From Candidatus Heimdallarchaeota archaeon (GTDB lineage Archaea; Asgardarchaeota; Heimdallarchaeia; Heimdallarchaeales; Heimdallarchaeaceae): a stretch of DNA of 64,000 nucleotides. A program made the translations under genes and the position numbers. Every line of letters begins with the position of its first letter. Positions within the stretch are counted from its first letter, which is position 1. The notes beneath the pieces are model-generated. The model was not told where the DNA came from and did not search any database. It saw only the letters and a list, made by a program, of their open reading frames with translations. The DNA lies in the NCBI GenBank assembly GCA_019057815.1, contig JAHLWR010000005.1, positions 130,829 to 194,828 on the forward strand, read 5' to 3'. Of this stretch, positions 49,945 through 64,000 are shown in pieces.

Positions 49945-50013
49945 GTCATTTTTTTTCTGTTGTTTTGTTATAGCTTTAGCTCATAATTAGTTTAACACAA
50001 TTAAAAGTGATGT
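49945..50013 (+). promoter_or_regulatory. Conserved ~70 bp upstream block of peptide unit 1, ending in a GTGAT SD-like sequence
   Basis: gtca.tttttttctgttgttttgttatagctttagctcataattagtttaacacaattaaaagtgatg; near-identical at 50178, similar at 62492 and (reverse) ~52340-52400. Confidence 0.75.
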
Positions 50014-50076
50014 ATGATGTTAGACCCTGGTGAACCCGGCGATGATTATATAATCCCTCCAGCTTGGACTCCTTAA
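50014..50076 (+). CDS. Micro-peptide 1: MMLDPGEPGDDYIIPPAWTP
   Basis: SD-like GTGAT; motif conserved with 50248 and 62563 through synonymous codon changes; downstream T-tract. Confidence 0.8.
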   Translation: MMLDPGEPGDDYIIPPAWTP

Positions 50077-50112
50077 AAAGGGATTATTCTCTTTTCTTTT
50101 TTAAATTATTGA

Positions 50113-50247
50113 CTAATAATGGGTCTGAAATGTAATAAATTTAGAAAATATATGACGAAAAATATAATTTTCTGTATGTCACTTTTTTTCTGTTGTTTTG
50201 TTATAGCTTTAGCTCATAATTAGTTTAACACAATTAAAAGTGATGAT
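50113..50247 (+). repeat. Inter-unit spacer plus conserved upstream block of peptide unit 2
   Basis: Highly similar to 62427..62562. Confidence 0.85.
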
Positions 50248-50304
50248 ATGTTTGACCCAGAACCCGGCGATAATGAAACGATGCCTCCTGAATGGCATCC
50301 TTAA
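50248..50304 (+). CDS. Micro-peptide 2: MFDPEPGDNETMPPEWHP
   Basis: Same motif; in-frame 3 nt indel relative to copies 1 and 3; downstream T-tract. Confidence 0.8.
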   Translation: MFDPEPGDNETMPPEWHP

Positions 50305-50567
50305 GAAGAAACCAATTCTTCTTTTTTTTTTATTACTAGCGCAATAATTTAATCCGAAACGAAGATATTTTTATAGTGTTTTATATATTTATTATTGGGT
50401 GTTCATTAAAATAATGCTAGACATAAGAAATCTCTTATTTATTAGGTATTTATGCGAAATTATTCCACCAATGCTTTTTCTTAGACTGACATTCAATCAA
50501 AATACGTAGAGAGGAGAGGAAAAGAATTTTTGATGTAAAAGAATTTCATAGAGCAAAACAACACTTA

Positions 50568-52217
50568 TTGGATAATAAGGATAAAATAACATCGCTTTCT
50601 AAATTAAGGGAATATATTGAAAAATTAGAATTCGTCTGTGCCAACGAAAGATCGTCTCAACTTGCTCAATTATTGGAAGAAATAATAGAAAAAATAAAGC
50701 CTTTCAACGATAATTATTCTCTCTTCACAGTATGTTGGGAATTTTTCATCCAGACTTACTATTATGTACAAAAAAAAGAGCAAACAGAGTACTTAATTGA
50801 AAATATGAGAACAATAGCTTGGCAAGATGAGAATAACCTACAAAAAGCACTAGTATATACAGCTATAGCCCTTTTCAGTCAATTTAAAGGGGTTTATGAA
50901 GATGCTATTAAATATACATTGTTAGCTAAGCAATTAGTTGAACCATTCAAAAATAAATACAAAAACACCTATTACAAAATTTTGTATACATATACACATT
51001 TTTTCATCTGGTTCAAGGAAAGAGACATACCATCAGCTGTAGAAAATATGGAAGAATGTTTTTTGTATTATCATCAAAGTTACAACTCTCTAGGTATGAT
51101 AAAGTCTATCTCCCTACTCTTGCGATTTTATATTTTGTTAAATCAAGGAACTAAAATCAAAAAGCTACTAAAATGGATATTTGTAGAGGAACGAATCCAA
51201 GATAATCTAATTGACACACATTTTATTTGGTTATACAGAACTGTTGGGATAATTTTTACAATACAAAACAAACTTTATGATGCTCTAGGCCATTTGACAG
51301 AAGCGTATAAACGAATTAAGAGAGAAAGTTTACAACATGAGGTAATGTATGAATATGTTGAAATTTTAAGGTTTTTAAGTCGCTGCTATGCTTATCAAGG
51401 TGATTTTCAACTAGCACATAATTTGCTCGTTGAATTGGCTGGTTTCATGGAAACCGATTTTGTGAAAAAAAATTATTTTAAATCAGGTATAAAACTTGCT
51501 TATTTCAGCACTTGTTACACACTTTTATTCATTTTTGTACAACTGGATTTAGATATTTCAAACGTACAAGATGAAAAATTAAGGCAAATTTATAAATATA
51601 CTAAATCGTTTATTTCTGAATCACGTTTATCAAAGGATTTACTTTTAGATTCATATTCAGATGAAGAAGGCACGAAATCGCTGTTAAATGATGAAACAGA
51701 CAAATCTAGAGAAGAGGTTTACATAACTCTACATCAACTTCTCATTACACACAAACCATATATAGCAACTAAAAAGACTGCAGATGCAATAAATAAAATC
51801 AAAAATTATACTTTTGATCCATTATACGCAGATATTTTACTGGGAAAGATACATTTAGCAATGGGAAACTTTGCAGAATTCAAAAAAACAGCAGAAAATG
51901 TTAGAAAAAAAACAACAGATGAAAAAGCACCAATTCTGCAAATTTGGAGTGACTTTTTTACTTTGTTGTCCAAATATTTAGAGGAGCCTAGCAATCTCAC
52001 AATTCTTAAAGAGTTTAAGAATTTAGAAATAAAGTGTTCACAAAAAAATTTCAGGAAAATGGCAGAGGAGATAAAACTATATCAGAAATTAATCTCATCC
52101 ACTCGAACAATTAAAAAATTTGAAGATAGATTTCAACAAACTGCTTTTATGGATGTATTCAATGAACAATCAAAGAAAATGGTTATAGAATATTTGGATG
52201 AGCAAAAAACGAGTTAG
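50568..52217 (+). CDS. TPR-like alpha-helical repeat protein, paralog A
   Basis: ALVY..IA....FKG.YEDAIKY; VGIIFTIQNKLYDALGHLTEAY; LSRCYAYQGDFQLA; LGKIHLAMGNF. Confidence 0.75.
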   Translation: MDNKDKITSLSKLREYIEKLEFVCANERSSQLAQLLEEIIEKIKPFNDNYSLFTVCWEFFIQTYYYVQKKEQTEYLIENMRTIAWQDENNLQKALVYTAIALFSQFKGVYEDAIKYTLLAKQLVEPFKNKYKNTYYKILYTYTHFFIWFKERDIPSAVENMEECFLYYHQSYNSLGMIKSISLLLRFYILLNQGTKIKKLLKWIFVEERIQDNLIDTHFIWLYRTVGIIFTIQNKLYDALGHLTEAYKRIKRESLQHEVMYEYVEILRFLSRCYAYQGDFQLAHNLLVELAGFMETDFVKKNYFKSGIKLAYFSTCYTLLFIFVQLDLDISNVQDEKLRQIYKYTKSFISESRLSKDLLLDSYSDEEGTKSLLNDETDKSREEVYITLHQLLITHKPYIATKKTADAINKIKNYTFDPLYADILLGKIHLAMGNFAEFKKTAENVRKKTTDEKAPILQIWSDFFTLLSKYLEEPSNLTILKEFKNLEIKCSQKNFRKMAEEIKLYQKLISSTRTIKKFEDRFQQTAFMDVFNEQSKKMVIEYLDEQKTS

Positions 52218-52279
52218 TATTCAATTTTAAAAGGTAACTCCTTGTAGTTATTAGAAGAAATAAAAGAAGAACAGACTTC

Positions 52280-52339
52280 CTACTCAAGGATACCATTCAG
52301 GAGAAGAAAGTTATTATCTTCAGACTCTGGGTCAAACAT
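52280..52339 (-). pseudogene. Inverted, frameshifted micro-peptide copy (MFDPESEDNNF...; shifted frame ends SPEWYP*)
   Basis: Reverse complement reads acaattaaaagtgatgatatgtttgacccagagtctgaagataataactttcttctcctgaatggtatccttga, one nt short relative to copy 2. Confidence 0.75.
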
Positions 52340-52547
52340 ATCATCACTTTTAATTGTATTAATCTAAGTATGAGTAAAAGATTAAAGAACAAAACGAAGA
52401 AGGTGATAGAATAAAGTGAAATAAGAAGCACCTAAATTACTCTTAATTGAAGTTTACAAAAAACATTTGATCTTTAAAAGATTAACCAAAGTTAAATCAA
52501 ATATCATAACATTTTTCTATAAAGACTCTGAGTTTGGTTTGATAATT

Positions 52548-52973
52548 ATGCCATCGAATCCGAATCGTGAATTTCTATTAGAGTTGAGCACCTTAGTAAA
52601 TAAGCGTGTCAAAATACTGTTAAGCAGTGACAAAATATACACTGGTGTTTTGAGAGGTATTCAAGATACTTCATTTAACGTAGCTTTATCTGAAGCAGAG
52701 AGCGCAGGAATAAACTATTTTAGAGTTTTTATAACTGGTTCCAACATTGTTGAAATTACCCTTGCAGAAGAGCCATTTAACTTATCAGGACTAGCAAGCG
52801 AACTAGCATCTATGTTCCAACCCCAAAATATCAAAATCTTGGAAGAAGCTGGGATTATACAAGTTTTTGACAGATTTACTGTCAGTGAAGAAGGAGTAAA
52901 AGGGACTGGACCTATAGCTGAGAGAATACAGAAAATTTTCGACAAATACAAAGCTCAAGCAGAATCGGAGTAA
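52548..52973 (+). CDS. Lsm/Sm-like protein with C-terminal extension (SmAP3-like)
   Basis: LVNKRVKILL..KIYTGVLRG...FNVALSEA...FITGSNIVEI; start at ATG 52548. Confidence 0.85.
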   Translation: MPSNPNREFLLELSTLVNKRVKILLSSDKIYTGVLRGIQDTSFNVALSEAESAGINYFRVFITGSNIVEITLAEEPFNLSGLASELASMFQPQNIKILEEAGIIQVFDRFTVSEEGVKGTGPIAERIQKIFDKYKAQAESE

Positions 52974-53010
52974 GGTCCGTGAACCTGCGCTCCCTTTTTA
53001 TTGTTTTTAG

Positions 53011-54609
53011 GTGTTACTGTTGGAAGAAATAATTAATTCGGATTTACACAGTCGAATAGGTTCTTTTTCACTTCCCCACGGGAAAGTAACAACACCTACA
53101 TTACTACCTGTTATTGATCCTAAAGAAAACATTATTACTGCAGAAGAAATGCTCAGCAAATTCGGATTCAATTTTGTAATTACAAGTGCTTATCTTTACT
53201 ACAAAAGGTATGGAATGCCAAGCAAAACGAAAACAATACACGAAACTTTGATGTTTCAAGGGAATATAATGATGGACAGTGGAGCATACCAAATTTTGGC
53301 ATATGGAGATGTTGACATAGATCCATTACAATCTTTAGACATTCAATCGAATCTAAGTCCTGATGTAGGAGTGATTTTGGATGTCCCAATCCCGCCAACA
53401 GACACTTATGAAAGTGCCCAACTTAAAATCTATGAAACAATCAAAAGAATAAAATTGTCTGTTGAAAAAATTAAAAATCATCCTGAAATCATTTGGACAG
53501 CGCCAATTCAAGGAGGAAAGAACACTTCTTTAATAAGAGAGTTTATACAAAAACTCAATAAAAAAGACCTCCTAAAACACTTCAATTTTTACGCACTTGG
53601 TAGCGTTGCTCCAATTATGTCCCAGTATGACTATCAATCACTCTTTTCTATGATATATGAAGCAAGGAAATTATTAACCCACAGTATACCTCTACATCTC
53701 TTTGGAGCCGGTCATCCAATGATTTTCCCTTTTATTGTTGCTTTAGGTTGCGACACATTCGATAGCGCGGCTTATATCTTGTTCGCTAAAGAGAATCGTT
53801 ATATGGGAGCTACAAGAACATACCAATTAGCCAATCTAACTGAATTCCCTTGCAGTTGTGAAATATGTTCTAAATGGTCACCAAAAGAATTGATTCAAAC
53901 CGAAAACAGAATCAGGATTCGTAATTTAGCTCTTCATAATTTATATGTATCAGTTGCGGAAATCAAACAAATTCGTGTTGCAATAAGAGAAGGAAGATTA
54001 TGGGAATTATTAGAGCAGAAAGCGCTTTCACATCCACTACTATATCGTGCTTATAAGCACATTTTAAAGATTGTAGATAGCAAATACTGGGAATTTGGAA
54101 CACCTATAACAAAATCAGTAGGTTTGAAGATATTCAATGCGGACTCTTTTCATAGACCAGAATTTACAAGGATAAGAGGTAGAATTCTGAGAAACTACCA
54201 AGCACAGCAAAAAAAATTGCTTATTTTAATTTCATCAGGTAAAACAAACCCAATTGAAATGCTCATTCATCGAAGAGATGTTTATGAACAAATAGAAAAA
54301 GCTATCAATCATTATGATATAGCTATGTTTCTCCCATTTATTGGTCTTATTCCCGTAGAATTAGTTGAAACTTACCCCTTTTCACAATCAGTCTTTTCTT
54401 CGCTTTTGTCAGAAGAGATAATTGAAAAAGCCATTTCAGAAGCATTGAAATTCTTGAAAGCAAAGAAATATGAAGAATTTATAGTTTTCAACATTGATAA
54501 AGAAGAAGTTCCTGATAACATATTAACTAGGATAGAAATAGCAATTAAAAATGGTGTACAAAAAGTCAAGAAGTTAGAGAGAATTGAAGATTTAAAGACA
54601 ATAGAGTAG
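53011..54609 (+). CDS. tgtA: Archaeosine tRNA-guanine(15) transglycosylase
   Basis: TPTLLPVI, MMDSGAYQ, PIQGG, HLFGAGHPM, GCDTFDSA, CSCEIC, LALHNL. Confidence 0.95.
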   Translation: MLLLEEIINSDLHSRIGSFSLPHGKVTTPTLLPVIDPKENIITAEEMLSKFGFNFVITSAYLYYKRYGMPSKTKTIHETLMFQGNIMMDSGAYQILAYGDVDIDPLQSLDIQSNLSPDVGVILDVPIPPTDTYESAQLKIYETIKRIKLSVEKIKNHPEIIWTAPIQGGKNTSLIREFIQKLNKKDLLKHFNFYALGSVAPIMSQYDYQSLFSMIYEARKLLTHSIPLHLFGAGHPMIFPFIVALGCDTFDSAAYILFAKENRYMGATRTYQLANLTEFPCSCEICSKWSPKELIQTENRIRIRNLALHNLYVSVAEIKQIRVAIREGRLWELLEQKALSHPLLYRAYKHILKIVDSKYWEFGTPITKSVGLKIFNADSFHRPEFTRIRGRILRNYQAQQKKLLILISSGKTNPIEMLIHRRDVYEQIEKAINHYDIAMFLPFIGLIPVELVETYPFSQSVFSSLLSEEIIEKAISEALKFLKAKKYEEFIVFNIDKEEVPDNILTRIEIAIKNGVQKVKKLERIEDLKTIE

Positions 54610-54680
54610 TTGATGGAAATCAGGGACGACGCAATTTTTTATTAGTGATTTTTTATACTCTATTTAGATTAGTATATTAG

Positions 54681-55610
54681 GTGAAGAACGAAATGAATGA
54701 ATCCAATTCTTTGTTAATTCTAGGAAAACCTATTAGTTTCTTTACAGGAGAAATCATATCAATTGGAATATATCAATGGGGAATTGTTGGAAAAATAAGG
54801 GTAGATGAGAAAGAGTACAAATATAAGTTGAAGGATCCTGAATTGAAGAAGCAAATGGAAATAGGTATGGACTTAATAGTCAGAAATGGTTTTTGTATTA
54901 AAGGAGAACAAGAAGAGGCTGTAGTAACAGAGGGAAAGTTTGGAGAAGTAGAGTTTGATATAAACCTTAATCGCTATTATTCTCAAAAAGAACTTGTGGA
55001 AGGAGGAAGGATAATAACAGGGATGTTGAGAGAAATACAAAGTGATGTAAATGAAATAACAATAACCATCGATTCAATAGGTGAGTTAAGTGAATCTATT
55101 GATATATTTGGTCCAAATGATGCATTAAATCCACAAGAATTGCACCCAGGAAGCATAATTAGAGTAAAAAATGTGAATAGTGTTAATAAAATACAATCAA
55201 TCGATTCCATAGAGGTTCTACATAAAGAGCACTTTTGGTATAAATTTTTAATGATTCGTGATGGAAATCTAAAAGAGATTTCAACTTTCTTATATTTGTT
55301 TCAAAAAAAATCAAACCTTATAAATCAACATTATGAAACATTCAAGCAATTGTTGTTCAATTTTGGAAGTGAGATTTTAAAATCATCATTGGTCTTCCTC
55401 AAAGAGGTTTTACATGAAAAAGTATTTGCCAACAAAAATTACCCTGCTCAAGTTTTAATTTCCAGTGAGCAAATAGATCAATATTTCGAAGGTTTGTTTC
55501 TTTTCATTAAGAAAAAGCTTGAGAAGAGTGAAATGTTCAATGAACTGGATGATTTTATTATATTCTTAAAGTATGTTTATCCTCCAATTAAAATGAAATC
55601 GTATATTTAA
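54681..55610 (+). CDS. Hypothetical protein with OB-fold-like N-terminal region
   Basis: LIVRNGF.IKG...VTEGKFGEV resembles RPA-type OB folds. Confidence 0.55.
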   Translation: MKNEMNESNSLLILGKPISFFTGEIISIGIYQWGIVGKIRVDEKEYKYKLKDPELKKQMEIGMDLIVRNGFCIKGEQEEAVVTEGKFGEVEFDINLNRYYSQKELVEGGRIITGMLREIQSDVNEITITIDSIGELSESIDIFGPNDALNPQELHPGSIIRVKNVNSVNKIQSIDSIEVLHKEHFWYKFLMIRDGNLKEISTFLYLFQKKSNLINQHYETFKQLLFNFGSEILKSSLVFLKEVLHEKVFANKNYPAQVLISSEQIDQYFEGLFLFIKKKLEKSEMFNELDDFIIFLKYVYPPIKMKSYI

Positions 55611-55679
55611 TTGCAAACATAACAGCATATTAATTTCTTGAAAAATAAACGGAGAGAATTGTTACAAAAAGAGAATAAA

Positions 55680-55994
55680 TTATTTTCTCTCAATGGCAAT
55701 TTCAATATGGACATCTTCAGGAACGTGAATACGCATTAATAATCGCATGCTTTTCTCTTCCGCATCCATATCTATAATTCTTTTATGCAGTTTCATCTCT
55801 AAATGATCATAGGTTGCTGTGCCGTTGCCACAGGGTGACTTTCTAACAGGTAAAACTATACGCTTTGAGGGGAGTGGAATAGGTCCTCTAATTCGTAGTC
55901 CTGTTCTTTCAGCTATCTTTTGGATTTGGTTGCAGATTTTTTGTAAAGATTGAGGATCGTTACCAATTAACCGGATCCTAGCTCGTTGACTCAA
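55680..55994 (-). CDS. rpsJ: 30S ribosomal protein S10 (uS10)
   Basis: RARIRL...GPIPLP...RKSPCGNGT...MKLHKRIID; TTG start after GGTGA. Confidence 0.97.
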   Translation of the reverse strand: MSQRARIRLIGNDPQSLQKICNQIQKIAERTGLRIRGPIPLPSKRIVLPVRKSPCGNGTATYDHLEMKLHKRIIDMDAEEKSMRLLMRIHVPEDVHIEIAIERK

Positions 55995-56100
55995 TAAATC
56001 ACCTTTTGATAGTAGAATTCTGGAGTGTTTTAAGAATATTTCGTTACTAGATTATTTAGAAGAGTAAAAAATAGTTAGAAGGATGTAAAGGATAATTTAA

Positions 56101-56487
56101 TTATTCACGATGTTCAAGGATAAATTCAATTCGCTTTATTCTTTCTTCGAGCATTTTAATTCGTTCAAGTACATCCTCCATTGAATTATCTATGGCTGAA
56201 ACATTGGTTAGAGTAGTTTGTGTTTCAGTAGCGGAGACATCTCGAAACAAAATTTGAGCTTGTGTGGTTATGTCTCTTGTTATTTGATCTACCATAAAAT
56301 CGTTAAGATACATATTTACCTCTGAAAGGACAGCTTTTATATTATCTCTCATTCCCCTTTCACTAACCTCCTTGACCACTGCTTCCCCCTCAACAACATC
56401 ATCAAGTTTAATTTGAATCATCCATTGGCCCTTTACATTTGTCAAAGCACACACATACCTAGTTCCTGGAATCTTTGCTTCATACAT
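56101..56487 (-). CDS. Hypothetical protein with C-terminal coiled coil
   Basis: GAGG SD-like sequence; LERIKMLEERIKRIE. Confidence 0.7.
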   Translation of the reverse strand: MYEAKIPGTRYVCALTNVKGQWMIQIKLDDVVEGEAVVKEVSERGMRDNIKAVLSEVNMYLNDFMVDQITRDITTQAQILFRDVSATETQTTLTNVSAIDNSMEDVLERIKMLEERIKRIEFILEHRE

Positions 56488-56695
56488 GGTTTTAACCTCA
56501 TAAGTGATTGATTAACTAAGTTATTGAAATTTATAGTCTTGGTATATTTTCACTATCTGTCTAAACAACTTTGAATATAGTATCATTTTTTAAATTTAAA
56601 ACATTAACGGATTGGCAAAGATGTATTTTCATTTAATTAATGAGAAATTTGTTGTAGATAAATCTTTAAACTAACAAACATACCCAAACATAATA

Positions 56696-58696
56696 ATGAG
56701 TCATTATACCAGAGAAATACTTCTAGCAATGACTAATAAACAGAATATTAGAAATATCAGTATCATAAGTCATGTAGACCACGGAAAAACAACCCTATCC
56801 GATCACTTACTCCAAGCAGGGGGGTTAATTTCCCGAATAATGGCAGGAAGTGCAAGAGTTCTAGACTACTTAGATGAAGAACAAAAGAGAGGTATAACAA
56901 TTAAAACAGCTAATATATCCTTCATCTATAAACTCAATGGGGGGTCATTTCTAGTTAATTTAGTAGATACACCAGGTCATGTAGATTTTTCTGGTATGGT
57001 ATCCCAAGCTTTACGCTTAGTTGATGGAGTAATTATTGTAATAGATGCCGTGGAACAAGTTATGGCACAAACAGAGACAGTAATTAGACAAGCAATGAAA
57101 GAAGGATTAAAACCCTTATTATTTATTAACAAAATAGACAGACTGATTAATGAACTAAAATTAACAAAAAAAGATATCAAAATTCGCATTAGTAACATCA
57201 TACAAATGACTAACGACCTAATTAACCAGTATGCTCCAAGTCAATTCAGAAAAGAATGGAAAGTAAGGGTTGATGTTGGTACAGTTATTATAGGATCTGC
57301 CCTTCATGGATGGGGTATTTCAAAATATTCAGAGAATGAACCGAAATTTGAAGAGATTATTGATTTTTACTCAGAAAAACAAATAGAAGAAATAAGAGAG
57401 AACTACCCTCTCATTGAAGCTATTCTGCCGAGTGTAATAAAAAATATTTCAAACCCTGTTGACTCTCAGGTTAATCGTATGAGATTAATTACAAAAGAAT
57501 TGGATAAAGATGCTGAAAATTATCTAAGTAAGTGTGATGATAATGAAAAAGCAGTTCTTTGTATAGGTAAATTGATGTATGATGACAATAGAGGAATAAT
57601 TTCGATAATGAGGGTTTTTTCAGGAAAAGTTAAATCAGGAACACTTGTAAAAAATGTAAGAACGGGAGAGATTTGTAAGGTTCATCAAGTATGTATATAC
57701 AAAGGTCAATCCTTAGTAACGATAGATTCAGTAACAGCTGGAAATATAGCTGCAATCATTGGAATAAAAGATGGAATCATTGGAGATACCTTTATAGAAA
57801 CAAAAGGGCACATTCCAAAGTTATTGTTTTCACCAATATCTTATATTCAAGAGCCTGTAATCTCAAGAAGAGTTGAACCACGAAAAATAGCTGATATACC
57901 AAAATTACAGAAAAATCTAGAAATCTTAACCTTAATTAAACCAAATTTTAGTTATAGTTATGATCAAAATACAGGTGAGATAAAGATTTATGGCATTGGA
58001 GAGCTACAACTTGAAATAATTACAGGAGAAATAGAAGAACTAGGAATAAAAGTTGAGGTATCTGAGCCCGAAGTTTCGCTTGTTGAACAAATAGAAAAAG
58101 AAGAGAGTATCACAAAAATTGACACATTAGAACTTGTGGAAATTTCAGTGACGTGTAAACCAACGGAATCAGAGTTAAAATCAGAAATAACTTACAAAGA
58201 TTCGAGAAATAATATTTTAATTGTTGAAATTGAAGAAATAAACCAAGGTATTGAGGAAATATTAATTATAGGGTTTAAAAATGCCATATTAAAAGGACCA
58301 GTGAATAATAAGCCAATACGAAATATAACAGTAATTATCAGTGATATCAAAGAATTAGAAAAAAACGCTTTAAGATACGAAATTCTTGTTCCGTTAGTGA
58401 AAACAACAATTTACGAAACAATTCAAAAAGCGGATATTGGTGTTTATGAACCAATTTATAGTTTTACCATAACAACACCCATGCATTATTTAGGACAAGT
58501 ACTCAAAGTAACACAAAAATTTGATTGTGAAATAAAAAATACGCAACATTTGGCAACAAGAACAATAATAGAAGGTAAAATAAGTGTGGAATCCTCTCTG
58601 AGAATTGCAACAGAACTTCGTTCTGCTTCGGAAGGATATGCGTTTTGGCAGTTCCAACTTAAAGGATATGAAAGAAAGAAAAATAGCTTTTTATAA
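56696..58696 (+). CDS. Elongation factor 2 paralog (aEF-2p-like) lacking the diphthamide HRG motif
   Basis: HVDHGKTT, RGITI, DTPGHVDF, NKID, GELQLE, LRSASEG; domain IV loop reads ELEKNALRYE instead of ...IHRGPAQ. Confidence 0.85.
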   Translation: MSHYTREILLAMTNKQNIRNISIISHVDHGKTTLSDHLLQAGGLISRIMAGSARVLDYLDEEQKRGITIKTANISFIYKLNGGSFLVNLVDTPGHVDFSGMVSQALRLVDGVIIVIDAVEQVMAQTETVIRQAMKEGLKPLLFINKIDRLINELKLTKKDIKIRISNIIQMTNDLINQYAPSQFRKEWKVRVDVGTVIIGSALHGWGISKYSENEPKFEEIIDFYSEKQIEEIRENYPLIEAILPSVIKNISNPVDSQVNRMRLITKELDKDAENYLSKCDDNEKAVLCIGKLMYDDNRGIISIMRVFSGKVKSGTLVKNVRTGEICKVHQVCIYKGQSLVTIDSVTAGNIAAIIGIKDGIIGDTFIETKGHIPKLLFSPISYIQEPVISRRVEPRKIADIPKLQKNLEILTLIKPNFSYSYDQNTGEIKIYGIGELQLEIITGEIEELGIKVEVSEPEVSLVEQIEKEESITKIDTLELVEISVTCKPTESELKSEITYKDSRNNILIVEIEEINQGIEEILIIGFKNAILKGPVNNKPIRNITVIISDIKELEKNALRYEILVPLVKTTIYETIQKADIGVYEPIYSFTITTPMHYLGQVLKVTQKFDCEIKNTQHLATRTIIEGKISVESSLRIATELRSASEGYAFWQFQLKGYERKKNSFL

Positions 58697-58789
58697 TTGA
58701 AAATGGCTCAGAACTCAAGATCCTCAACATTAAATTCAGTAAAGGGCTAGATTCTTCATTGCCATTATACTCCCCTCTTGCCAGTATTT

Positions 58790-60103
58790 TTACTTTCCCA
58801 TTTCTGAAAGAATACGTTGTGAAATAGAAGAACATTTATCAAGAATTTTGTGTTTATCAAGTGTTTGATGTTTCTTATTGAAGTAGACAAACTTGCCATT
58901 GACTATTAAATCACTAGTGTCAGAGCTAGATGATGAATAGATAATATTGGACAAAGGGTTATTTTGAGGCCAGGAATGGCTATTTTCAAGTGAAAGTATA
59001 GTAATATCAGCTGGAGAGCCTTCTGATAACCCAAATGTGTCAACACCCAATGCTCTCATACCACTGATAGTACCAAGTGATAGTGTATAGGCATTATTCA
59101 TTACCGTAGGATCATTAGCTAGATATTTCTGTAGAACAGCTGCAATATTCATCTCTTCGAGTATACCAAGATCATTATTTGAAGCACTACCATCCGTTCC
59201 AAGAGCAATTTTAACCCCCATTTTTGCATATTTGTGAATTGGTGCTATTCCGCTAGCTATTTTAAGGTTTGACTGAGGGTTATGCAAAACAGTAAAATCG
59301 GTAGTCTGCATTATCTTACAATCTTTTTCATTTGTATGGACGCAATGAGCACCTAAAATTTTCAAATCGGTTAGGCCAATTTTGTGGATATATTCAATTG
59401 GGGAAAGATCATATTTTATTAGTGATTCCGTTACCTCTTGCTGGGTTTCTGAAAGGTGAATATGAATGGGTAAAGAATGTCTGGAAGCAAAATCAATAAT
59501 ATCCAAAAGATACTCCTTAGGAACAGTATAGGGTGCATGTGGTCCAATACCATATTTTATCAAACCGTTTTTAGAATTTCTCTTGCTCAAAAGAAACTTC
59601 TGAACAGATTTCCAGGTTTTATCTAAATCTCCTGATTCAGGAGTATTATCAAAAACTGAAGGACAGATAAGAGCACGGATTCCAGCCTCTTCCACAGCAG
59701 TCTCAATACTGGAAGCATAAAAATATTGATCAATGAAACCACTTATACCAGATTCAATAAGTTCAAGGCAACCAAGTAAAGCGCCAAAATAGGCGTCATT
59801 TTTTGATAGTCTTGCTTCAAAAGGCCAAATGAAATCATAAAGCCAGTTTTTCAATTTTTGATCATCACAAATACCTCTTAACAATGTTTCAGGAAGGTGA
59901 GTATGTGAATTTACCAGTGAGGGGATTGCTACATGTTGTAATCTGTCAATTTGATCATGTCCAGAAAGAAAAATTTTTACTTTTTCATATTTACCAACGG
60001 CAATGATTTTGTTATCCTCAATCAGTATAGAACCATCTTTTATGATCTTGTTACACTTCTCACCAGATATAATATATTTGCATCGCAGAAAGATTTCATT
60101 CAT
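58790..60103 (-). CDS. mtaD: Amidohydrolase, MTA/SAH deaminase-like
   Basis: NSHTH, GPHAPYT, HIHLSET, AHCVH, HNPQSNLKIASG, GTDGSASNN. Confidence 0.85.
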   Translation of the reverse strand: MNEIFLRCKYIISGEKCNKIIKDGSILIEDNKIIAVGKYEKVKIFLSGHDQIDRLQHVAIPSLVNSHTHLPETLLRGICDDQKLKNWLYDFIWPFEARLSKNDAYFGALLGCLELIESGISGFIDQYFYASSIETAVEEAGIRALICPSVFDNTPESGDLDKTWKSVQKFLLSKRNSKNGLIKYGIGPHAPYTVPKEYLLDIIDFASRHSLPIHIHLSETQQEVTESLIKYDLSPIEYIHKIGLTDLKILGAHCVHTNEKDCKIMQTTDFTVLHNPQSNLKIASGIAPIHKYAKMGVKIALGTDGSASNNDLGILEEMNIAAVLQKYLANDPTVMNNAYTLSLGTISGMRALGVDTFGLSEGSPADITILSLENSHSWPQNNPLSNIIYSSSSSDTSDLIVNGKFVYFNKKHQTLDKHKILDKCSSISQRILSEMGK

Positions 60104-60187
60104 TAAAGTTAGTTAAGAAAAGATAAAGAAAAAGTTTTCTTAGATATTAGAGTAAGAAAAAAAAGTGTCTTGATAATTGAACGAAAT

Positions 60188-61408
60188 TCACATTTCATGT
60201 TCAAAAACCTTCGAAAGTCTAAAATCATTCTCCAAAACTTCTTTGACTTGACCAAGAGATACTGTTAGGTGAATACGCTTTGAGCGACCATATCTTCCTT
60301 TGCTTATAATTTGAGCTGTAACAATACCCAACATATCAAGTTCATTTATTAAATCACTAACACGTCGCGCTGTCAACTGATCTAGTCTAACAATTTTACA
60401 GAGATTAGAATAAATTTCATAAACATCTCCAGTCGTTATTTCATTTGGGTTTCCTTCTCCAATGAAAATTGCTTGTAGAACAGCTTTAGTTTGTATAGGT
60501 AAGGTACTCAGTACTTCAACAACAGTGTTCCTCTCTATTACTTGTTGAGCTTTACGGACATGTACCTCTGTAACTTTAGGATCATTATTCCTGTCAGCGA
60601 GCTCAGCAGCCACACGTAGTAAATCTAAAGATCTTCGCGCATCACCATGTTGTTGAGCACCTATTGCGGAACATAAATTAATAACACCATATTCAAGAAC
60701 ATCAGATTGGAAAGCTTCATCAGTCCTTTGAGAAAGTATGTCCCTTAGCTGTTCAGCAGTATAAGGTGAAAAAACGATTTCTTCTTCACTTAAACTACTA
60801 CGAATACGTGGATCCAAAGTTTCCTTAAAATTAACATCGTTTGTTATACCGATTATACTAATTTTTGACTTCTTCAAGTCACTATTCATGCGAGTAAGAA
60901 TATATAGTGATTCTGTGTTCTTACGATATAACATGTCAATTTCATCAAGAACAGTTATATGGAGTGTTTCCATCGAATCTAAGGCTTCTTTAAATTTCTG
61001 ATAAATAATATCAAAATGCAAACCAGTAAAAGGGACGTCAATACCTATATCTTCACATAATTGAGCAAATAACCTATACTTGGTGTCAACATGTTGACAA
61101 TTCATATAACTATATTTGAATGGAAGACCTCTTGATTCAGCTTTCTTTTTCAAGATGGATAGAACATATTTACTAACAGCAGTTTTACCCGTTCCTGTTG
61201 TACCGTAGATAAATATATTTGAAGGAACACCACCTCGAAGTGCAGGTCCTAAAATTTTAGCCATTTCCTCAAATTTATCATCTCGATGAGGTAAAATGTC
61301 AGGAACATGATGGGGGCTTAAAACTTCACGTTTAGCAAAGATTCGAGTTTCATCATCTAGATATTTGTCAAAAATATCATCAATATGAGACCCAGATTTT
61401 TTTTCCAT
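60188..61408 (-). CDS. cdc6: Orc1/Cdc6 replication initiator
   Basis: LPHR, GTTGTGKT, VLDEID, GDARRSLDLLR, ELDMLGI..SKGRYGR. Confidence 0.96.
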   Translation of the reverse strand: MEKKSGSHIDDIFDKYLDDETRIFAKREVLSPHHVPDILPHRDDKFEEMAKILGPALRGGVPSNIFIYGTTGTGKTAVSKYVLSILKKKAESRGLPFKYSYMNCQHVDTKYRLFAQLCEDIGIDVPFTGLHFDIIYQKFKEALDSMETLHITVLDEIDMLYRKNTESLYILTRMNSDLKKSKISIIGITNDVNFKETLDPRIRSSLSEEEIVFSPYTAEQLRDILSQRTDEAFQSDVLEYGVINLCSAIGAQQHGDARRSLDLLRVAAELADRNNDPKVTEVHVRKAQQVIERNTVVEVLSTLPIQTKAVLQAIFIGEGNPNEITTGDVYEIYSNLCKIVRLDQLTARRVSDLINELDMLGIVTAQIISKGRYGRSKRIHLTVSLGQVKEVLENDFRLSKVFEHEM

Positions 61409-61530
61409 TTTCTTTCATCACATCTTTAACTCTAAAAGGATATTTTCAATGCAAGTTTAACTTTATCTATTAGTGATGATTCAGATGAATAAATATTTTA
61501 CGAATGTATTTTGACTTCACTTGATTAATA

Positions 61531-61845
61531 TCAACAGAGCTTGAATACAACTTTTGGTCGACCTCTAGTGCTACGAGGGATAGATTCCTTTTTTATACGA
61601 CCTTCCAAGATCAGTTTAGCTAAATTATCGTAAAGAGTTGAACGTGGTATCTGAGTAAGAGAAACTAGCTCCCCACGGGTTAATGGACCATTTTCAGCAA
61701 TAAGATTAAGTAAAAGATTTTCCAATCTTATTGCTTTATCTTTTTCATCAGAATAGACGTAAACTCTACGGCTACTAACGACAACACCTTGAATATCTGT
61801 CTTACTTTTCATCTTTCGTTTAAGTAATTGCTTATTTTGACTCAT
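61531..61845 (-). CDS. Winged-helix (TrmB-like) DNA-binding protein
   Basis: GPLTRGELVSLTQIPRSTLYDNLAKL...RGRPKVVF. Confidence 0.8.
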   Translation of the reverse strand: MSQNKQLLKRKMKSKTDIQGVVVSSRRVYVYSDEKDKAIRLENLLLNLIAENGPLTRGELVSLTQIPRSTLYDNLAKLILEGRIKKESIPRSTRGRPKVVFKLC

Positions 61846-61964
61846 AATATCACGTCTACTTACTAGCGACTAGGGGATTATTGTCGAATAAATAAATCGA
61901 TATAATCCACAGAATATCTACGGAATATCCATAGTTTATATTAGATATCGGTATAAATAGTAGG

Positions 61965-62312
61965 ATGATTATAGGAATGGAAAGGATAAAAATATTAAAA
62001 AAAGAAATCATAGAAACAATCAAATCAATAGAGAGGGAGATTCAAGAGTTAACATGGAGGGATCCTATTTTCGGTTTTATAACAAAAAAGTATACAAAAT
62101 GTGGGAAAGAAAACTGTAAATGCGCTAAGAGTATAAAATATCAACATGGACCATATTATTATCTGAGAGAGGAGCCTGAATATAAGTATGTGAAATATCT
62201 TGGAAAAAAAGTTCCAGAAACAATTAGGGGTAGAATAGAAATAGGGGTAAGAATCAGAGAATTAGAGAATAAACATAAAAAATTACATCAATCAATTAAA
62301 AAACTTAGCTAG
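61965..62312 (+). CDS. DUF6788-like Zn-binding protein (mobile-element associated)
   Basis: KCGKENCKC.....HGPYYYL......KYLGK. Confidence 0.65.
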   Translation: MIIGMERIKILKKEIIETIKSIEREIQELTWRDPIFGFITKKYTKCGKENCKCAKSIKYQHGPYYYLREEPEYKYVKYLGKKVPETIRGRIEIGVRIRELENKHKKLHQSIKKLS

Positions 62313-62351
62313 ACAATAGTTGTTGAAAATATATTATAATTTTAACAAGGT

Positions 62352-62378
62352 ATAACTCCGCCAATTTGGCTGTTTTAG
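62352..62378 (+). pseudogene. Truncated 3' remnant of a micro-peptide (ITPPIWLF*)
   Basis: ataactccgccaatttgg is nearly identical to copy 3 (ataactccgccagtttgg); sits at the unit-1 position relative to the spacer; in-frame stop just upstream. Confidence 0.65.
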
Positions 62379-62426
62379 CCATTGAGAGAGAGTTTTTCTT
62401 TTTCCTTTTCTTTTTCAAACCATTGT

Positions 62427-62562
62427 CTAATAATGTGTCTAAAATGTAATAAATTTAGAAATATATGACAAAAAACTATAATTTTCTGTGTGTCACTTTT
62501 TTTCTGTTGTTTTGTTATAACTTTAGCTCATAATTAGAGTACTAATTCAAAAGTGATGCATA
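62427..62562 (+). repeat. Spacer plus conserved upstream block of peptide unit 3
   Basis: Highly similar to 50113..50247. Confidence 0.85.
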
Positions 62563-62622
62563 ATGTACGACCCTAGCGAACCAGGAGATGAACATATAAC
62601 TCCGCCAGTTTGGTGGCCTTAA
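62563..62622 (+). CDS. Micro-peptide 3: MYDPSEPGDEHITPPVWWP
   Basis: Same motif with synonymous codons (CCA GGA vs CCC GGC); GTGAT SD-like sequence; downstream T-tract. Confidence 0.8.
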   Translation: MYDPSEPGDEHITPPVWWP

Positions 62623-62699
62623 TTGGTCACTATTTATTTTTTTATATCGATATTATCCCTCTTTATAAATCAATTGTCGTATAGTAATATGAACAAAAA

Positions 62700-64000
62700 A
62701 TGCATATAAATGAAGTAGCAAAAAGCATTAATCATATAAGAACAAAGGAAAAATTATGTACTGTAATGGAAAAGCTTCGACTCATAGTTTATAACGAAAA
62801 AACAAACGATCAGGTTTCCAGTTTAATTAACAAGATGATAGAGAAAAGTATAGAATTTAATAATAAAAGGGTTATAATTAACTTATATAGTTTAAAAATA
62901 GTACAAAAACATCACCTTAAATCTAAAAGTGAGCAAATTGTTAATTTAGCATCTAAAATCTATTCTTTATCAAAAGAAATTGACTACAATTATGGATTTG
63001 CACTATATTATTCCCATATGTGGTATATTGAGAAATTTAAAGGAAATAAAGAAAAGTCAAAAAAATGTATTGAAAAATCAATAACTATACTAGAAAAATC
63101 ACAAAAGGATGATGATTTTATTTATCATGTTTGTAAATATACCTTTGCGATAGAAAAATGGTTAGAAGAAAGTGATTCAAAAAGTATTGATATTTTAGAA
63201 GATTGTGCAGACTACTTCTTCCAAAATGGATTTTATAGAAGCTTAGTTCAAACCTTGGGAATATTATTAATAATTTATCAACGAACGCAAAACAGGGAGA
63301 AAGAGCTAGAAATATCTAAAGTGTTATTAGGGAACAAAAGCGTTTTTGAAAAACTACCTAAAGATGTTCAAGCATACACGCACTACGTAGCGGGGGTAGG
63401 ATATATGTTACAATTTTGTTTGGAAAACGCTGAAACCCATTTTGGAAGAGCGCACAAAATTTTCGAAAACATCCATAAACAAACCATCTATATCAGTAAC
63501 TATGTTTTGGCTTTGTCCTATCTTTCAATGTCACAAGCACTTCAAGGAAAAATGGATCAAGCTATTCAAGTAATTTATAAAACAGAAAATTTAGTACAAG
63601 ACGACTTTATTCAAAAAAACTTGGATAAAGTGAATAAGCGCCAAATTACCCACACTTTCAATCTGATAAAATTCTATATTCAAACACGAAGGGAAGATTT
63701 TAACATTGAAGAATTTAGTGTCATAGTTAAAAACCTTTATTCTGGAATTCAAATCAATTACAGCGATACTATCATGTTGAGCGAATTTCTCCTGAATGCT
63801 CAATTGTCCTATGAACAATTGCAAGAGTTACAAAAGAAGGATAATTCAAGTCTAAAAAGAGTAAAGCACATTATTTCGTTTATGATGGAAAAAACAAGGA
63901 CAGATGTAGAGCTTACAGCTGTAGAACTTTTAAGAAATTCCATCGTTACCCTGTGGAAAAGAAGAGTTCCTAGGGACGATACTTTTATAGAACGCTCTTT
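62700..64000 (+). CDS. TPR-like helical repeat protein, paralog B (partial; missing from the ORF track because it runs off the window)
   Basis: Manual translation MHINEVAKSINHIRTKEKLCTVMEKLRLIVYNEK... stays open to the edge; aligns with 50568..52217. Confidence 0.8.
   Translation, partial: MHINEVAKSINHIRTKEKLCTVMEKLRLIVYNEKTNDQVSSLINKMIEKSIEFNNKRVIINLYSLKIVQKHHLKSKSEQIVNLASKIYSLSKEIDYNYGFALYYSHMWYIEKFKGNKEKSKKCIEKSITILEKSQKDDDFIYHVCKYTFAIEKWLEESDSKSIDILEDCADYFFQNGFYRSLVQTLGILLIIYQRTQNREKELEISKVLLGNKSVFEKLPKDVQAYTHYVAGVGYMLQFCLENAETHFGRAHKIFENIHKQTIYISNYVLALSYLSMSQALQGKMDQAIQVIYKTENLVQDDFIQKNLDKVNKRQITHTFNLIKFYIQTRREDFNIEEFSVIVKNLYSGIQINYSDTIMLSEFLLNAQLSYEQLQELQKKDNSSLKRVKHIISFMMEKTRTDVELTAVELLRNSIVTLWKRRVPRDDTFIERS

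Follow-up and report, generated by a model that had tools for sequence, protein, structure and literature searches.

Conserved micro-peptide genes adjoining Rap-like tetratricopeptide repeat proteins in Heimdallarchaeaceae: a candidate peptide-receptor module

What do recurrent, very short open reading frames (ORFs) ending in a Pro/Trp-rich motif do beside genes for large helical-repeat proteins in an Asgard archaeon? This question is raised by a stretch of 64,000 nt from Candidatus Heimdallarchaeota archaeon (assembly GCA_019057815.1, contig JAHLWR010000005.1, positions 130,829-194,828, forward strand), hereafter called the window, whose genome (G000) comprises 48 contigs (3.74 Mb, 32.8% G+C). 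Two loci in the window hold such micro-ORFs, each with a gene for a large protein resembling tetratricopeptide repeat (TPR) proteins, and an initial annotation had proposed that they form an Asgard peptide-ligand/TPR-receptor system. Our analysis revealed that the micro-ORFs are coding genes linked to one TPR family, that peptides and TPR proteins have diversified together and that the latter are modelled with a fold like that of bacterial Rap receptors, giving the proposal moderate support, with weak predicted support for binding itself. The arrangement probably represents a lineage-specific, multi-copy two-gene module consisting of a trans-acting peptide ligand and its cognate TPR receptor.

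Reading of the window located all five micro-ORF copies that the initial annotation had listed, three intact and two damaged; coordinates below are on the plus strand unless stated otherwise. At the first locus, a promoter-like 5' block (49945-50012; reference copy of the repeat family D1), made up of a GTCA plus T-rich element, a TATA-like stretch and a Shine-Dalgarno (SD)-like GTGAT at 50007-50011, precedes micro-ORF 1 (50014-50076; 20 aa plus stop, or 19 aa from its second ATG), which fits the core G-D-x4-P-P-x-W-x-P-stop and is followed by a T-rich, terminator-like tract (50077-50110). The second cassette repeats this layout, with a block at 50178-50245 that is 99% identical to 49945-50012 and a core-matching micro-ORF 2 (50248-50304; 18 aa plus stop) ahead of a T10 run. 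The TPR1-type partner gene (50526-52217) lies downstream, and a decayed inverted cassette on the minus strand (52280-52395; inverted repeat I1, 83 nt at 81%) is convergent on it; this copy has kept the block, the SD site, the ATG (52339) and the first eight codons, and has lost its frame before P-P-x-W. At the second locus, a 3' remnant (62346-62378; repeat D3, 89%) retains the last 10 codons and the stop without a start, and the spacer 3' of cassette 1 recurs 3' of this remnant at 89% identity. It is followed by the cassette 3 block (62492-62559; 74% identity to the reference copy), a core-matching micro-ORF 3 (62563-62622; 19 aa plus stop) and the TPR2-type, main-clade partner gene (62700-64000; 433 codons up to the contig end). 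The roughly 70-bp upstream block said to be common to the intact units is thus a real 68-nt repeat family with three window copies. GTGAT lies 3-8 nt 5' of the ATG of all window micro-ORFs and T-runs follow all their stops, in agreement with the SD-like site and T-tract described earlier for each intact unit. A tandem pair of units in front of the TPR gene had been claimed for both loci; this holds for the first, where both units are intact, whereas the second has one truncated and one intact unit.

The peptide-gene family extends well beyond the window. Its genome holds nine intact peptide genes on three contigs, eight of which are followed by a homolog of the 62700 or 50568 gene, while the ninth lies at a contig end. 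Back-translated searches with G-D-x4-P-P-x-W-x-P-stop returned 89 matches, all finishing on a true stop codon, in 25 of 31 genomes of the same family, so that further copies exist across genomes and are confined to two genera. The reversed pattern, run on the same genomes as a control, gave 0 matches, as did the core pattern in the 369 genomes of the phylum that lie outside the family (400 phylum genomes scanned); chance is excluded by these comparisons. With a stricter pattern, applied to 185,579 bacterial and archaeal species that were each represented by a single genome, 38 stretches were found, nearly all in metagenome-assembled genomes labelled Heimdallarchaeota. A few were labelled uncultured archaeon or Promethearchaeati, and the hit positions of a single match labelled Thorarchaeota coincide with a contig of a same-family genome. 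The source names of the partner proteins are likewise those of Heimdallarchaeaceae.

The coding status of the micro-ORFs was assessed on 75 unique cassettes from 36 loci. An SD-like GTGA/GGTG/GATGA lies 3-14 nt 5' of an in-frame ATG in all 75, compared with 6% of random windows, and 63 of them have a run of at least five T (T5+) no more than 45 nt past the stop, compared with 17% of random windows. The order of elements is the same in both genera, with a (T)GTCA plus T-rich element, then a TATA-like stretch some 60 nt 5' of the ATG, the SD site, the ORF and the T-tract; the promoter-like block is conserved in 15 cassettes of the window's genus, and most cassettes keep it. At the invariant Gly, Asp and three Pro, codon positions 1-2 showed no variation and position 3 varied by 1.0-1.8 bits (the invariant Trp has one codon only), although this invariance is partly ascertained, the copies having been found by motif. 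An ascertainment-free test was made on 13 orthologous module pairs, picked as sister receptors in the receptor tree. Divergence of the ORFs amounted to 4.8% at positions 1+2 and 28.4% at position 3, next to 25.5% in the 110 nt upstream and 20.4% in the spacer to the receptor gene. This contrast between codon positions points to purifying selection on the translated product rather than on the DNA or RNA, agrees with the protein-level conservation suggested in the initial annotation and, read from the sequences, identifies the micro-ORFs as protein-coding genes under purifying selection.

With the SD-proximal ATG taken as the start, the micro-ORFs encode hydrophilic peptides of 18-24 aa with a net charge of -2 to -6. 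Their conserved core, [YF]-D-P-x(0-3)-[ED]-x-G-D-x4-P-P-x-W-x-P, lies at or adjoining the C-terminus; one to three extra residues follow the final Pro in many copies, indels are tolerated between D-P and G-D, and Trp is flanked by P-P-x and x-P in 74 of 74 cassettes scored. No hydrophobic core or export signal was found in the peptides of the 75 cassettes, the highest 9-residue hydropathy being 0.96. Decayed and frameshifted copies and occasional bicistronic pairs are present among the cassettes, which indicates birth-and-death turnover of the peptide genes. In one genome (G043; L019 1730-1882 and 3850-4000), two peptide genes stand 11 nt apart under one promoter, and a frameshifted copy lies directly 5' of an intact one at the same L019.

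Linkage of these genes to homologs of 50568-52217 proved tight and specific to one TPR family in two genera. The partner family occurs in 21 of 41 relatives, all belonging to one taxonomic family, with up to 10 copies per genome that often form tandem arrays. When the fetched loci were scanned with a hidden Markov model (HMM) of the family, 1-3 intact same-strand peptide genes were seen 50-300 nt upstream of almost all full-length partner ORFs, the peptide units occurring in tandems of 2-3. Only two main-clade ORFs appeared to break this rule, and one of them was an over-extended ORF call covering its peptide gene. The TPR2-type (main-clade) paralogs of the 62700 gene share 41-67% identity and each stand behind a peptide gene. 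In the TPR1-type subfamily, to which 50568-52217 belongs, linkage is looser: some peptide genes lie upstream and several downstream in convergent orientation, and the linked peptides often have T, S, L or D instead of Gly before Asp. When 44 receptors were arranged in a tree, receptor clade and proximal peptide type went together, and orthologous receptors of different genomes are accompanied by identical peptides despite synonymous changes in their genes. A third conserved module gene was considered and rejected, as the flanks differ at each locus and no other neighbour is common to all loci.

In one relative (G012; L022 10375-10488 and 12305-12418), a perfect 114-nt inverted repeat that includes the whole peptide gene brackets a TPR1-type gene, the result of recent duplication, of recent gene conversion or of the assembly itself. 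The inverted arms in the window (83 nt, 81%) appear to be a decayed version of the same bracket layout. The idea that such inverted cassettes are the ends of a mobile element was set aside, with no transposase or integrase found either between or beside them. Viral contigs searched for relatives of the TPR family yielded none, so the module shows no sign of riding on known viruses.

The receptor genes carry conserved promoter elements of their own, located 3' of the peptide T-tract. In the first type, a C-rich box and TTTATAAA lie 25-40 nt before the start, as in many genes of the second genus and at the 62700 gene, where the C-rich element and TTTATAAA (62662-62669) occupy 62655-62675, 31 nt before the ATG. 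The second type has a direct repeat, TGCAA-N5/6-TGCAA, 15-20 nt 5' of a TATA box. These promoters bear on a possible role of the micro-ORFs in cis. A Pro-Pro/Trp/Pro ending at the stop codon recalls arrest peptides of the TnaC or SecM type, and stalling at P-P-x-W-x-P-stop could be imagined to control termination at the T-tract and hence read-through into the TPR gene. Amino-acid-level conservation with Pro-Pro, Trp and Pro at or near the stop would suit a leader or ribosome-arrest peptide of this kind, as would a micro-ORF placed directly 5' of a gene and followed by an oligo-T tract. However, every unit has its own promoter-like block, units come in tandems of 2-3, the conserved TATA element of the TPR genes lies after the T-tract, and the TPR1-type subfamily has intact convergent peptide genes downstream, where a leader cannot act. 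The one to three residues past the last Pro in many copies, the indels tolerated between D-P and G-D and the variable residues that follow receptor clade are further points at odds with stalling. To judge from sequence, the ORF is not part of a 5' leader on one transcript with the TPR gene. The separate TATA element, the tandem units and the convergent copies therefore argue against a leader or arrest peptide, which we regard as highly improbable, and for a diffusible product.

What, then, is the partner of this product? The two large genes of the window are paralogs, as previously proposed, though distant ones (22% identity by tblastn, 6e-11; the family HMM matches 50568-52217 at 7e-25). Partner proteins are all-helical, comprise about 525-560 aa and are least conserved at the N-terminus. 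Pfam searches gave sub-threshold TPR matches only and NCBIfam searches none, and no helix-turn-helix (HTH) family in either collection was matched. These domain searches, together with the hydropathy of the peptides, bore out the remark in the initial annotation that a signal sequence and an HTH are lacking and that the module departs from a standard RRNPP system. When 1.84 billion cluster representatives were searched with a profile, only about 100 clusters came back, all unnamed and all from the partner family itself, which accordingly is an orphan family; among PDB sequences the same approach returned nothing meaningful (best E 0.037, to a designed TPR).

AlphaFold2 modelled both types as TPR solenoids, supporting the earlier description of the partners as TPR-like (predicted local distance difference test, pLDDT, 91 for a full-length main-clade paralog of the 62700 gene and 83 for the window's 50568-52214 protein). 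In an exhaustive VIA-align comparison against 48,161 chains, the top match of both models was the Rap protein of phage phi105 in complex with a hexapeptide (main clade: Z 21.0, root-mean-square deviation 4.3 Å, 326/350 aligned; 50568-52214: Z 20.4, 4.1 Å, 325/350 aligned). Because helical repeats typically reach Z of about 14 in this comparison, the Rap match is clearly above the usual level. Further RRNPP receptors (NprR-NprX, RapI, RapH, AimR, pLS20 Rap, PlcR) followed at Z of about 12-18, interleaved with separase, APC subunits, LGN and MalT domain III, and Foldseek against the PDB listed generic TPR proteins only (best E 2e-6), NprR and Rap among them. The Rap match spans approximately residues 20-390, covering the putative N-terminal bundle and the TPR solenoid; its alignment starts at Rap residue 10, which makes an N-terminal helical bundle plausible in the models. 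A helical C-terminal part of about 130 residues follows, the last 85 of which are the most conserved of the family. As modelled, the TPR proteins appear structurally closest to Rap-type peptide receptors.

The domain searches also bear on a conflict module resembling toxin-antitoxin or defence systems, in which the peptide would neutralise a harmful or sentinel TPR protein. Multi-copy, lineage-restricted tandem arrays with frequent decayed copies, and the perfect 114-nt inverted duplication around one gene, would fit such a module. No nuclease, kinase, pore or other effector domain was found in the TPR protein, however, viral contigs gave no match, and the modules are flanked by housekeeping genes, not by defence islands. 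We consider this very unlikely, and it would itself still imply binding between peptide and TPR protein.

In the proposed peptide-receptor module, the first gene would be a self-standing micro-gene, with its promoter-like block, SD site, 18-24 codons and oligo-T terminator, for an acidic peptide without an export signal. The second, read from its own TATA box, would encode a Rap-like N-terminal bundle and TPR solenoid followed by the conserved helical C-terminal part. The peptide would act in trans as the cognate ligand of the adjoining TPR protein, sitting in the concave groove of the solenoid and switching how the protein engages a common partner, as Phr switches Rap. Variable positions of the peptide and of the solenoid would together set pair specificity, which would account for the several distinct pairs per genome. 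As to the site of action, we lean slightly towards the inside of the producing cell rather than a route through export and re-uptake.

A single complex prediction was made for one receptor (G017; 53-row alignment) with its adjacent peptide, supplied as the natural 31-codon ATG frame. The interface score ipSAE was 0.32 over three runs, compared with 0.01 for the best of three controls, a verdict of weak support; the pLDDT of the partner was 42-45, at least 80% of contacts were common to the runs, and the output gave no interface. In calibration, 58 of 80 solved complexes attained the mark, as did 2 of 110 mismatched pairs, counts that are rough for this case because a custom alignment was supplied; with scores of at most 0.60, just 7 of the 80 solved complexes attained it, together with both mismatches. 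The ligand-receptor proposal as a whole is partly supported, and we treat the score as a small increment, which by itself is no evidence of binding.

Several points weigh against a peptide ligand and its cognate receptor. The peptide chain in the complex prediction had 8 extra N-terminal residues, which are probably untranslated leader (the SD region), and scores in this range are rated as mostly wrong, except where the pairing was likely a priori. The Rap match stands only 2-3 Z above unrelated TPR proteins (separase, APC, LGN, MalT), and no sequence similarity to any RRNPP receptor or solved protein was detected. Several paralog subfamilies, including one on contig C39 of the window's genome, lack a detectable peptide gene, and co-duplication of neighbouring genes alone would also be expected to yield co-diversification. 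The last two points would equally suit co-inherited but independent genes, the peptide being a free-standing acidic mini-protein whose target is other than its TPR neighbour, for duplication of a two-gene block could give both linkage and co-diversification. Acidic D/E-G-D stretches resemble calcium-binding loops, and the one in the peptides could serve, for example, as a metal-binding D-x-D-G-D loop or a short-linear-motif mimic. Yet linkage has outlasted divergence of the TPR proteins to about 20% identity and a change in relative orientation, which would be hard to maintain unless the two were functionally tied, and the peptide occurs nowhere without the partner family (400 phylum genomes; 185,579 species). 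Independence of the two genes thus seems improbable to us.

Does the ligand leave the cell? In seven or more genomes, drawn from both genera, an ATP-binding cassette (ABC) pair lies directly 5' of a single peptide-TPR module (G000, contig C23 43589-46316, L013 7590-10320; also G001, G009, G017, G020, G024 and G043). It consists of an ATPase of about 285 aa, resembling FtsE, LolD, MacB-like and bacteriocin-export families at levels below the cut-offs, and a protein of about 605 aa with 8-9 hydrophobic segments, a large loop and weak similarity to FtsX and to the MacB domain. Present in a single copy, the pair is also found in two genera without peptides (about 30% identity), and the receptors adjoining it fall in different clades. 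This MacB/FtsX-type pair is a candidate peptide exporter, no more. It would also fit an exported bioactive peptide of the bacteriocin or ribosomally synthesized and post-translationally modified peptide (RiPP) kind, with the TPR protein as immunity, scaffold or processing factor, for which tandem, fast-diversifying peptide genes are typical as well. Most modules lie far from the ABC pair, however, and its single copy and presence in peptide-less genera do not fit this role; peptides that are acidic (-2 to -6) and hydrophilic are unlike membrane-active bacteriocins. No conserved modifying enzyme, protease or leader/core architecture was found at any locus, the neighbours being housekeeping genes that differ from locus to locus, and they lend no support to the RiPP-like precursors that the initial annotation had listed as an alternative. 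An exported bioactive peptide therefore has, in our estimation, little chance of being the answer. A further version of the ligand-receptor module, in which the leaderless acidic peptides are exported, perhaps by the ABC pair, re-imported and read by the Rap-like receptors, would constitute the first peptide cell-to-cell communication in archaea. We think it rather unlikely; if true, it would mean pherotype-like kin recognition in close relatives of eukaryotes, either independent of the Firmicutes RRNPP systems or sharing a very ancient origin with them.

Regulation of the receptors may extend to other loci. A direct repeat of 21 nt, in which two CTGCAA units are spaced by one helical turn, occurs with a TATA box six times in the window's genome (C10 6104, C12 112951(-), C23 39947, C7 51847(-), C24 68725(-) and C40 101305(-)), three times at receptor promoters and three times before other genes, namely at one locus for a ParA/MinD-like ATPase and a subtilase and at two loci that each encode a pair of proteins lacking Pfam matches. 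The window's own TPR genes are without this repeat. As the identical repeat and TATA box precede both receptors and unrelated loci, they look like a shared operator and suggest a common regulator.

Both partner genes of the window have an irregular end. The listed ORF of the TPR1-type gene starts at TTG 50568; its relatives start 14 codons earlier, a position that corresponds in the window to ATT 50526, with GAGGAGAGG as an SD site 7 nt upstream. The sister-genome ortholog and all relatives have ATG there, opening a conserved M-[LF]-D-x-x-E-[FY] N-terminus. The window's gene may start at the ATT or at TTG 50568, or its start may be in the course of being lost; the gene with this anomalous start also has the decayed downstream peptide copy. 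At the other end, the last 55 nt of the window (63946-64000) are identical to the end of contig C23, where they lie 3' of another peptide cassette. The 62700 gene is accordingly incomplete for technical reasons, the assembly having broken inside repeated TPR paralogs. Neighbouring genes in the window are housekeeping ones (Lsm, archaeosine TGT, an EF-2-like GTPase, an amidohydrolase, Orc1/Cdc6, DUF6788 and HerA) with no common relation to the cassettes. The DUF6788 gene (115 aa, 61965-62312) lies directly 5' of the second cassette locus; a double-zinc-ribbon ORF takes the corresponding place at the C23 locus, and no conserved link was seen.

In two genera of Heimdallarchaeaceae, uncultured archaea closely related to eukaryotes, genomes thus carry up to 10 diversified peptide-TPR pairs each. 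Gene callers overlook the peptide genes, which illustrates that short conserved genes hide in Asgard intergenic regions. If the peptides bind their neighbours, these pairs would form a compact ligand-receptor system in Asgard archaea, with ligands of about 20 residues and soluble helical receptors, and would offer a natural series of cognate and non-cognate pairs for studies of specificity. Searches of the literature on archaeal RRNPP, Asgard peptide quorum sensing, Heimdallarchaeia TPR proteins or small peptides and Asgard small proteins found no description of such a system. To our knowledge, Rap-Phr-type pairs of peptide and receptor have been established only for Firmicutes and for the mobile elements of these bacteria.

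Among known systems, Rap-Phr of Bacillus, its plasmids and phages, including phi105 Rap with its hexapeptide (PDB 8rte), is the nearest. Both have a cytoplasmic helical TPR protein without an HTH, for which an N-terminal bundle is plausible in the archaeal models as well; a small peptide gene adjoining the receptor gene; and many diverged paralogous pairs per genome. The top structural match of both partner models is phi105 Rap. The adjacent small peptide gene of RRNPP systems is thus present, in an orientation that differs from the classical downstream position: the archaeal gene forms a separate transcription unit placed 5' of the receptor gene, or 3' of it in convergent orientation, whereas the Phr gene overlaps the rap 3' end. 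Further differences are the archaeal host, the extra conserved C-terminal part of about 130 aa in the receptor and the lack of a known target such as Spo0F or ComA. The archaeal peptide is acidic, has 18-24 aa, carries no Sec signal and is probably unprocessed, in contrast to a secreted pro-peptide with a signal that is processed to a mature peptide of 5-10 aa; the receptors share no detectable sequence homology, and the TPR-type peptide-binding solenoid is common to both at the level of the fold only.

Other comparisons are more partial. Streptococcal leaderless peptides with RopB/Rgg receptors, and ComS/XIP with ComR, likewise have no signal sequence and a TPR-type receptor encoded alongside (PMC10518010), and since these leaderless peptides do signal, an absent leader does not speak against cell-cell signalling. 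Those receptors have an N-terminal HTH, Firmicutes hosts and hydrophobic peptides, in contrast to the acidic peptides and undetected HTH of the archaeal module. The multi-paralog systems of Paenibacillus, in which many distinct peptide-receptor pairs per genome point to diversification of specificity (PMC7425212), are matched by the many distinct pairs in the archaeal genomes; they comprise bacterial RRNPP-type receptors and secreted pro-peptides, with no homology to the archaeal proteins. A looser, functional analogy is offered by kinesin light chain, whose TPR groove binds a short acidic Trp-containing cargo motif (PDB 3zfw; PMC13078783, PMC5739299) and whose TPR chains were among the structural matches (Z 16.1 and 12.1). 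That motif lies inside a cargo protein, whereas the archaeal ligand is a free gene product, in which Trp sits within P-P-x-W-x-P with the acidic cluster 6-10 residues upstream, and in none of the 74 scored cassettes is Trp directly flanked by acidic residues. With TnaC and SecM, the micro-ORFs have in common a short ORF conserved at the peptide level with Trp and Pro near the stop, residues that are essential in those peptides, but they differ by their own promoter and terminator, tandem copies, convergent placement and variable residues tracking receptor clade. The module is Rap-Phr-like in layout and fold, yet falls outside RRNPP on sequence homology and on the secreted pro-peptide; the peptide genes beside Rap-shaped proteins suggest a peptide-receptor system so far undescribed in archaea.

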